Shown here piece by piece: positions 50,651 through 51,285 of a stretch of DNA of 64,000 bases. Positions within the stretch are counted from its first letter, which is position 1; each line of letters opens with the position of its first letter. The notes beneath the pieces are model-generated. The model was not told the DNA's origin. It worked only from the letters and a program-made list of their open reading frames with translations, and did no database searches. The DNA is taken from sequence record PQ569716.1; one strand, 5' to 3'. This stretch comes from Klebsiella phage vB_Kpn_K7_rec17. Position numbers and translations under genes: made by a program.

Positions 50651-51285
50651 TGTCGGATTTGCACATAACAAAACGATTGTCGGAAATGCACATTACTCCT
50701 GAACATAAAAACACTGTCGAATTTGCACACAGCTAGTAGATTGTCGGAAATGCACATACTCAAACGCTTGTCGGATATGCACATTATTACTAACGAACGG
50801 TAGCTGTGGACCAAAATCTTCGATTATGCGAATATAAAATATCTCCTGAAATTTCAAGCCTTTTTACACGGTGTGTCACCGTGAGTTCGCTTGTTTTTTA
50901 GAGCCACAGGAATTTTTTCTGTGTCAACCCCTTTACCCCCATTTAACTCATAATATTTTCCCTTATCTGCCCCCTTGCCCCCATCATCCCCGAATTGCCC
51001 CAATTAACCCCGTTTATCCCACCCTCAAAAATACCCATCGGATTTGCACATACTCACCTAAACTCGCACCCACCGCTGCGCTGCAGCAAACTGCGCGCCT
51101 TCCCCCTAAAAATTATTATCGGATTTGCACATATTAGTGTCGGATTTGCACATGCCCCCAGGGCGGTAAAAATAAATTTTCATCGGATTTGCACATACCC
51201 TAGCAGCCTCACGTAATATTTTGCTTGACACATTGTCGGATTCGCACATAAGCGCAGGAAGGGCCGGGGGTCGGAAATGCAAATA
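50651..51285. repeat. array of 11 direct 16-bp iteron-like repeats (consensus TGTCGGAWWTGCACAT) with irregular 10-230 bp spacing
   Basis: Copies start at 50651, 50679, 50715, 50742, 50769, 51037, 51118, 51138, 51182, 51234 and 51270. Confidence 0.8.

Follow-up and report, generated by a model that had tools for sequence, protein, structure and literature searches.

The DNA between the early and pre-early genes of a T5-like Klebsiella phage carries eleven copies of a 16-bp direct repeat, and the question raised by this locus is what these copies are for. They bear both on how T5 stops and restarts the injection of its DNA and on how its exact 10-kb terminal repeats are cut.

Genome setting

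The window analysed here is a stretch of 64,000 nucleotides from Klebsiella phage vB_Kpn_K7_rec17 (PQ569716.1). The region studied was 100% identical to Klebsiella phage vB_Kpn_K7PH164C4 (OY979402.1; Demerecviridae, Sugarlandvirus), which is T5-like. The assembly in OY979402.1 is circularly permuted and shows the terminal repeat only once, in collapsed form; the window passes across the record's end and continues at its beginning. The orientation of the window is opposite to that of the T5 map. The early genes were found on the + strand, the last of them being an HNH gene ending at 50022. They were followed by ~1.7 kb of non-coding DNA and then by the pre-early genes, also on the + strand, with the late genes beyond. 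The pre-early genes recognized were:

57028–57432, + strand: A2, an essential pre-early DNA-binding protein, 66% identical to T5 A2
58077–59753, + strand: A1, about 74% identical to A1 of T5-like phages
60344–61060, + strand: dmp, homologous to the T5 left end

The repeat array and its surroundings

The eleven direct repeats had first been noticed in a sequence-only reading, and the count held. A scan of the window with the pattern TGTCGGAWWTGCACAT, allowing up to 2 mismatches, gave 11 matches where chance would give 0.13, and every match lay on the + strand. None of 100 shuffled controls had 11 matches, and the shared orientation of 11/11 copies had a binomial p of 0.001. The copies start at 50651, 50678, 50715, 50742, 50769, 51036, 51117, 51138, 51181, 51234 and 51269. 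When the whole 113-kb genome was scanned, no further copy with up to 2 mismatches was found in the rest of the window or in the remaining 49 kb. Matches with 3 mismatches in the rest of the phage genome, outside the array region, were at chance level only. By eye, a degenerate twelfth copy with 4 mismatches could be seen at 50422–50437.

The site is asymmetric. Its 12-bp core, TCGGATTTGCAC, was identical in all eleven copies. Compared with the T5 repeat, five copies had AAT or TAT for the central TTT. The spacing was irregular, with no single helical phase over the whole array. The repeats correspond to direct repeat D (DRD) of T5, as detailed below, and we use this name throughout. They form two clusters, A and B, within the following series of features:

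50651–50784, + strand: DRD cluster A, five 16-bp copies (50651–50666, 50678–50693, 50715–50730, 50742–50757 and 50769–50784; spacing 27/37/27/27), in unique DNA just outside the terminal repeat
50867–50899, + strand: hairpin CACGGTG-tgt-CACCGTG, then a T-run up to the boundary, read from the sequence
50895–50916, no strand: inner boundary of the terminal repeat, taken as the right physical genome end, TTTTTA|GAGCCACAGGAATTTT, with the cut between 50900 and 50901
50917–51035, + strand: C-rich spacer between the boundary and cluster B, GC skew about −0.39, variable in length
51036–51284, + strand: DRD cluster B, six copies (51036, 51117, 51138, 51181, 51234 and 51269), inside the terminal repeat
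51212–51258, + strand: nick-site-like bipartite motif CGTAAT...GCGCAGG, found by motif scan, counterpart of the T5 'major nick 1, 7.9%'
51282–51386, no strand: three tandem 35-bp units, imperfect palindromes AATGCGAATGAtAATgATTCGCATT, counterpart of the T5 DRC/palE–palJ block
51405–51530, + strand: DnaA-box module, equivalent of the T5 IRC'-spacer-IRD', with the boxes of each pair 3 bp apart
51410–51418 and 51422–51430: DnaA-box pair 1, TTATCCCCA with TTATACAAA
51471–51479 and 51483–51491: DnaA-box pair 2, perfect TTATCCACA with TTATTAACA
55188–55253, − strand: distant inverted partner of the DnaA-box module, equivalent of the T5 IRC-spacer-IRD, 66 nt, 83% complementary to 51464–51529
61134–61153 (approximate), no strand: outer end of the terminal repeat, the left genome terminus and first DNA injected, placed by homology to the 20-nt tail of a two-copy contig described below

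Cluster A is present once per virion genome, beside the left repeat, and cluster B in both repeat copies of the virion DNA. One DRD copy (51234–51249) was held in the spacer of the nick motif, and the copy at 51269 overlapped the first palindrome. The three palindromic units and the perfect DnaA box said to follow the array were recovered at 51282–51386 and 51471–51479. Further perfect DnaA boxes were found on the minus strand, at 55226 and 55287. As a candidate function of the palindromes we considered Fur boxes and rejected them, Fur-box-like matches being found only in the dmp coding sequence (60929–60953).

The hairpin with its T-run (50867–50899) looks like a terminator for the early operon, which reads towards the repeat. 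A consensus terminator scan did not call it. T5 has a counterpart at the same place, GGGCC-gaa-GGCCC followed by a T-run.

The array DNA had been described as free of ORFs, which was true in substance. Only seven small ORFs (40–88 aa) overlapped it, and none matched Pfam or PHROGs, arguing against the possibility, also raised in the sequence-only reading, that the region is a decayed gene. An Rfam scan of 49900–52300, with E up to 1, gave no match. The source record annotates a CDS at 50854–51003 on the minus strand, spanning the repeat boundary. It had no counterpart in the curated T5 record and is probably spurious.

Identity with T5 direct repeat D

A relation to the repeat-rich segment of T5 in which first-step transfer stops had been suggested from the letters of the window, and a sequence comparison with T5 made this relation exact. 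In Sugarlandvirus, the array proved to be the orthologue of the 'direct repeat D' array of T5, and the whole segment that of T5 Repeat Region 3. In the T5 GenBank record (AY587007), DRD copies 1–6 are annotated at 9672–9895 in the left terminal repeat, which ends at 10139, copies 7–9 at 10225–10409 in unique DNA, and copy 10 in ORF019. Scanning T5 with the TGTCGGAWWTGCACAT pattern returned exactly the nine annotated Repeat Region 3 sites and copy 10, on the opposite strand.

Both arrays follow one consensus (TGTCGGATTTGCACAT in T5) and are divided by the repeat boundary, with 6 copies inside and 3 outside the repeat in T5, compared to 6 and 5 in the window. T5 DRD lies on the strand of dmp, A1 and A2, which is the minus strand there, and 11/11 window copies likewise lie on the strand of A2, A1 and dmp, here the + strand. 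The order of elements was also common to both phages: outer DRD, hairpin and T-run, repeat end, C-rich tract and inner DRD, then AAGCGCAGG ('major nick 1, 7.9%' in T5), GAATGCGAATGATAATGATTCGCATT-type palindromes and two DnaA-box pairs. The distant inverted partner of the DnaA-box module was found in both. Synteny thus extends from the first early genes through DRD, repeat end, DRD, nick motif, palindromes and DnaA-box inverted repeat to the pre-early genes. Copy number and spacing differed between the two arrays. The copy at 51269 on the first palindrome is an extra of the window, whereas the window phage lacks the extra DRD copies that T5 has in ORF019 and exo2.

Repeat Region 3 of T5 is non-coding, conserved in T5-like phages and thought to contain the injection stop signal (Davison 2020 preprint, 10.1101/866236). 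As stop-signal candidates the preprint names the inverted repeat of DnaA boxes and the DRE repeats; it lists DRD but proposes no role for it. The paired DnaA-box arrangement is also described there for T5-like phages. The first-step-transfer shear point of T5 is placed at about 9618, in the palindromes just before DRD1 (~9671) (Davison 2020, 10.1101/866236). By homology, its equivalent in the window would be at about 51290–51380, and the array region would lie at the distal end of the first-transferred DNA, at about 8% of the genome. In literature of 2023 and 2026, the T5 stop signal still has no mapped position and A2 no known DNA target.

The repeat itself is not new: DRD has its place in the T5 annotation, and its conservation among T5-like phages has been reported. 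As the orthologue of an annotated T5 element, the array adds mainly a better annotation of Sugarlandvirus genomes; its interest would be considerably greater if binding of A2 or the terminase to DRD proved true. Relative to the literature, three things may be new: the position, to the base, of the boundary that separates the clusters in Sugarlandvirus, a core that stays invariant as far as Vibrio phages, and the natural spacer variants.

The terminal repeat boundary

The array had been placed near the inner edge of the terminal repeat. The edge was correctly recognized, but 'near' was not the right word: judged from sequence comparison, the array straddles the boundary at 50900|50901, with copies 1–5 outside, in unique DNA, and copies 6–11 inside the repeat. 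At this boundary the window reads ...TTGTTTTTTA|GAGCCACAGGAATTTTTTCTGTGTCAACC. The repeat ends of T5, Sepoy (PhageTerm) and EscoHU1 were all at ...GAGTTTTTA|GAKCCACAGRAATTTTCACTTGTCAAGC, and several independent IMG/VR genomes begin or terminate precisely at GAGCCACAG. The repeat end of Stitch is annotated 5 bp off that junction.

A 123,490-bp Sugarlandvirus contig from IMG/VR, 89.7% identical to the window across the region, has both repeat copies. From the boundary G, its two copies were 100% identical over at least 10,257 nt, and they shared 0 nt leftward. The early-gene-side copy was accompanied by the five outer DRD, and the terminal copy had the six inner DRD only. Because this congeneric contig fixes it, the boundary is base-exact in the window. 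Relative to the cut, the DRD clusters of the window lie at −250 to −132 and at +135 to +368, and cluster B of the two-copy contig at +135 to +369. By these comparisons, 50900|50901 is identified as the point at which concatemers are cut to produce the right end of the genome.

The terminal repeat would extend approximately over ~50901–61153, roughly 10.25 kb. Motif scans detected no DRD copies at the left terminus, and no motif common to both terminus cut sites rose above shuffled controls. The GenBank records of the Sugarlandvirus members Sugarland and Shiner have no annotated termini.

Conservation across T5-like phages

The sequence-only reading had allowed for the repeats being absent from other T5-like phages. 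We found the DRD array in five genera: Tequintavirus, Epseptimavirus, Myunavirus, Sugarlandvirus and Thalassavirus. Tequintavirus and Epseptimavirus had 5–7 copies inside the repeat and 2–3 outside. The layout of the window was also found in Pectobacterium phage My1 (6 inside, 4 outside) and Vibrio phage Cody (about 6 inside, 2 outside). Mining IMG/VR for two adjacent cores gave 42 loci, 41 of them on contigs of 96–123 kb and the other on an 11.8-kb fragment, so that arrays of this kind are nearly confined to contigs of T5 size.

The core TCGGATTTGCAC was invariant in the window (11 copies), T5 (9), My1 (10) and Cody (8). The A1 of Cody is only 33% identical and its spacers were not alignable, and still the DRD core was unchanged. 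The 3' flank varied by lineage, being CACAT, CACT or CACCT. We also compared DRD with DnaA boxes and rejected this identification. The best register, ATTTGCACA against TT(A/T)TNCACA, has a mismatch at position 1, and the fit worsens in My1 (CACT) and Cody (CACCT), while the genuine boxes nearby stay perfect.

Six other Sugarlandvirus genomes had 9–11 DRD copies, all on one strand. Gain and loss of copies affected chiefly cluster A, which had 3 to 6 copies among the Sugarlandvirus relatives and was never lost. Within Sugarlandvirus, the conservation of motif and spacer (0.89 vs 0.86, p = 0.13) did not differ significantly, because the whole region is about 87% conserved at this shallow depth.

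In T5, the window, Cody and My1, 0–3 nt separated cluster B from the nick motif or the palindromes. Depending on the lineage, 2 to about 350 bp lay between cluster B and the repeat boundary. Three viable K7_rec laboratory variants had a spacer deletion of 50926–51037, a deletion of 50960–51002, or a duplication of about 50992–51131. In these variants cluster B lay at +21, about +92 or +267 bp, all 11 copies were kept and cluster A was unmoved. Another phage, JIPh_Kp127, had 48 bp missing in the C-rich spacer. Cluster A was 73–132 bp from the cut across lineages, and 245 bp in My1. Extra same-strand DRD copies were found in early genes of T5-like phages, with a further two in exo2 of T5.

Because the motif is strictly conserved amid spacer turnover, we strongly infer that DRD is a protein-binding array. 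Selection appears to act on the motif rather than on its context, and cluster B is anchored on the side of the transfer pause, whereas how far it lies from the cut is free. The invariant 12-bp core, an array that always flanks the genome-end cut and an inner cluster anchored on the pause side narrow the hypotheses on its role.

One T5-like phage departed from this pattern. Proteus phage Stubb retained the nick motif, the palindromes, the DnaA boxes, A1, A2 and normal small and large terminases (TerS and TerL), without the DRD array.

Proposed role in DNA entry

The reading we favour, with a probability of about 0.4, is that the DRD array provides docking sites for a phage protein on the first DNA entering after the first-step-transfer pause. 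The left end is injected first, and transfer pauses once the pre-early genes, the DnaA boxes and the palindromes have entered. What crosses the envelope next would be the roughly 635-bp stretch bearing DRD. Its copies would be bound by a sequence-specific DNA-binding protein that reads them in one orientation. A pre-early protein made during the pause, the best candidate being A2, alone or with A1, would bind successive copies as they emerge. This binding would capture the DNA, bias its movement inward and restart second-step transfer like a binding ratchet. The copies past the repeat boundary would simply be further along the entering DNA, and the second copy of cluster B, in the right repeat, would be a passenger.

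DNA entry is favoured by the anchoring of cluster B to the pause side, by its free distance to the cut, by the position of the T5 shear point before DRD1 and by the extra copies in early genes. The same array may double as a terminase recognition site that sets the right genome end. Complete in vitro ejection through FhuA, described in the literature, speaks against a block already assembled on the DNA within the capsid.

With respect to the protein, A2 is reported in the literature to be essential for second-step transfer and to bind DNA, with no known target. Its basic residues were conserved across 21 homologues, including the A2 of Stubb, which had all of them. The predicted structure of A2, locally reliable (pLDDT 84), had two helical domains and a basic linker. 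A Foldseek search of this model against the PDB gave nothing significant (best E = 1.3), and A2 had no match in Pfam. We infer that A2 is a candidate binder of the array. A narrower version of the proposal is that DRD is the specific docking site of A2 or an A1–A2 complex, and that sequential binding of the 9–11 oriented copies restarts second-step transfer. We put this forward tentatively and consider it doubtful. If true, it would account mechanistically, in concrete terms, for a step of T5 infection that has lacked an explanation since the 1960s.

Several points count against the entry model. Purified A2 has been reported in the literature only as a DNA-binding dimer, without sequence specificity, and an asymmetric site repeated in one orientation is not an obvious target of a symmetric dimer such as A2. 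Because Stubb keeps A1 and A2 without the array, A2 function does not depend on DRD in every lineage. The identities of A2 and TerS were 40% and 47% in Stubb, which has no array, and 36% and 44% in Cody, which has one, so that neither protein was specifically diverged in Stubb. Since the T5 pause position is known only approximately, the stop could fall before, within or after the DRD copies. Lastly, an array straddling the genome-end cut in every lineage looks equally like a packaging signal.

Packaging signal

If the array served packaging, the two DRD clusters would be a terminase recognition platform, positioning cleavage at 50900|50901 in the concatemer and creating the right genome end. 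By a last-in-first-out logic, the right end would then be packaged first, as the left end is injected first. We regard this explanation as unlikely. In T5, Epseptimavirus, Sugarlandvirus, My1 and Cody, DRD copies stand on either side of the very site of cleavage, and they are kept on both sides despite turnover. The distance from cluster A to the cut is fairly constant (73–132 bp; 245 bp in My1), but that from cluster B is unconstrained, ranging from 21 to 267 bp among the variants of one phage and from 2 to 350 bp between lineages. No other multi-copy element was found at either terminus, and a left terminus without DRD is as expected if only the initiating end has a recognition site. The extra copies in coding regions, on the other hand, are distant from any terminus.

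The phage encodes a small terminase, for which Pfam gave a sub-threshold match only (E = 0.089); the ORF between TerL and the portal gene gave nothing in Pfam. The N-terminal helix-turn-helix region of TerS, as read from the alignment, was poorly conserved (44–47% identity overall), which is at odds with an invariant DNA core. In Stubb, TerS and TerL are normal and the array is missing. Searches of the literature for the packaging direction of T5 or a pac or cos site found nothing.

Repeats flanking a terminase cut are a classical architecture, known from the R-sites of lambda cosB, the pac hexamers of P1 and pacL/pacR of SPP1. Like DRD, these consist of several short repeats on both sides of a site-specific end cleavage. 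Unlike them, the nearest DRD copies lie 85–135 bp from the cut, a distance that itself speaks against the packaging explanation, and the distance of cluster B varies freely. The SRL/SRR arrays of T7, a phage with unique ends, are similar to DRD in being short direct repeats that abut a direct terminal repeat. They are heptamer-based and occupy both edges of a 160-bp repeat, whereas DRD is found at only one edge of a 10-kb repeat.

Host factor or early regulator

The array could also be bound by a conserved gammaproteobacterial DNA-binding protein, or by a phage early regulator other than A2, a possibility to which we give still less credence. Such a protein might anchor or structure the junction region, keep pre-early transcription separate from early transcription, or help to arrest transfer. 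A host protein would suit a core that does not vary between phages of Escherichia, Salmonella, Klebsiella, Pectobacterium and Vibrio, whose proteins go down to 33–47% identity, and the adjacent DnaA boxes, which have a host binder, show the same pattern. A regulator would suit the position of cluster A, between the last early gene and the terminator-like hairpin. However, DRD matched no known host-factor consensus, and the promoter-like matches in the array were weak and not conserved in T5. The host of Stubb is enterobacterial, and yet its array is missing.

Replication origin and nicking

The sequence-only reading had offered a replication origin as a second option, in which DRD would be iterons acting with the adjacent DnaA boxes. 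This did not hold up, and we consider it very improbable. Directly repeated 16-bp sites beside DnaA boxes do superficially resemble a plasmid origin, and DRD is similar to the iterons of plasmid and phage origins in length and in DnaA-box proximity. Unlike those iterons, DRD has no adjoining initiator gene, its neighbours being the HNH endonuclease gene and small unknown ORFs, and the array is split by the genome end, so that the right repeat has only half of it. The irregular spacing, in no single helical phase, also argues against an origin. According to Davison (2020, 10.1101/866236), the T5 origins have been mapped to the middle part of the genome, and the first-transferred DNA does not include the replication genes.

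Lastly, DRD might guide the nicking endonuclease of the phage to the major nick where the first-transferred DNA ends, an explanation we find scarcely credible: one DRD copy does stand directly 5' of GCGCAGG in T5, the window and Cody, but the T5 major nicks 2, 3 and 4 have GCGCAGGG and, upstream, a CGTAAT-like element in common, with no DRD within 4 mismatches, so that DRD is not needed for nicking, the My1 array has no adjacent GCGCAGG, and 10 of the 11 window copies have no nick motif. A degenerate copy stands likewise in Stubb, where it is the sole remaining DRD, beside GCGCAGGG. The PhageTerm end of Stubb coincides with this nick motif, and nick and terminus have probably been confused in this phage.

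Candidate nick sites

A bipartite motif resembling a nick site, (C/T)GTAA(T/C)-N26-36-GCGC(A/G)GG, was found three times in the genome, on the + strand only. L009 stands for phage genome DNA outside the window.

Window 37722-37764, + strand, nick-site-like motif
Window 51212-51258, + strand, nick-site-like motif
L009 35737-35778, + strand, nick-site-like motif

One of the copies is inside the SbcC-like gene and has its counterpart in T5 nick 4, within exo2. Going by the motif, the three sites are candidates for the major nick sites of this phage. In T5 (AY587007), exo2 also carries two tandem copies of the 16-bp direct repeat D (DRD), annotated as copies 11 and 12 (79019-79048), on the same strand as all other T5 copies, with major nick 4 lying ~370 bp away. 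In the window phage, the SbcC-like homologue had no DRD copies.

In the Proteus phage Stubb (NC_048086), the PhageTerm annotation “terminal repeat end” (11415) coincides exactly with the conserved nick motif, ...CACATAG|GCGCAGGG. A T5-like boundary context, with TTTTTGTCAAGCC after a hairpin, was found ~600 bp beyond the annotated repeat end. The annotated end is probably the nick rather than the terminus.

C-rich spacer and boundary CDS

The C-rich spacer (window 50926-51037) varied between laboratory recombinants of the phage, with a 112-bp deletion in rec12, a 43-bp deletion in rec24 and a ~132-bp duplication in rec20. JIPh_Kp127 was missing 48 bp from it. The CCCC-rich tract is an indel hotspot, or possibly one of assembly error.

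One CDS in the source record (window 50854-51003, minus strand) crosses both the C-rich tract and the boundary of the terminal repeat; it is annotated as K7PH164C4_LOCUS132, a hypothetical protein of 49 aa. Because this protein gave no family hits and the curated T5 record contains nothing equivalent, the CDS call is probably spurious. In the K7_rec records, 8–10 comparably tiny CDSs are annotated over the same region.

Short repeats around the DRD clusters

A second conserved motif, short and CAGGGCGGTTAT-like, had two to three copies in the non-coding region around the DRD (window 50352-50363, 50381-50392 and 51159-51170). The corresponding non-coding DNA of T5 and My1 has it too, and so does that of the DRD-less Stubb, there as CACAGGGCG. 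Over the whole window the pattern was not enriched (6 observed vs 4.5 expected), yet the local pair and the conservation across phages stand out. Further repeats were recognized upstream of cluster A:

Window 50430-50583, CACA/CTCAC-rich stretch
Window 50499 and 50562, 22-nt direct repeat CGCCYAAGTTCTAAGCGTCACT, inside this stretch
Window 50432 and 50533, 25-nt repeat, inside this stretch

From the same stretch, GTTCTAAGCG was found again at window 51570.

Other non-coding and terminal-repeat features

In the segment directly 3' of the HNH gene, at window 50023-50345, we noted a strong predicted sigma-70-like promoter (TTGAAA-17-TATAAT, TG upstream, 11/12). The ~300 nt after it contain no ORF, and a hairpin lies at window 50322-50338. 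Similarly, the equivalent place in T5 has non-coding DNA with structure and a site resembling a promoter (TTGACA). The segment, which gave no matches in Rfam, may represent a small RNA or a leader.

Within the dmp coding region there was a Fur-box-like sequence, GATATTGATAATCATTATC, with one mismatch (window 60929-60953). It overlaps an Asp/Asn codon run, and the resemblance most likely arises by coincidence from the coding sequence.

The terminal repeat has a second non-coding gap, corresponding to T5 Repeat Regions 1 and 2:

Window 55037-55830, second non-coding gap
Window 55226, 55287 and 55374, minus strand, DnaA boxes
Window 55133-55166 with 55428-55461, inverted repeats
Window 55428-55465, palindrome
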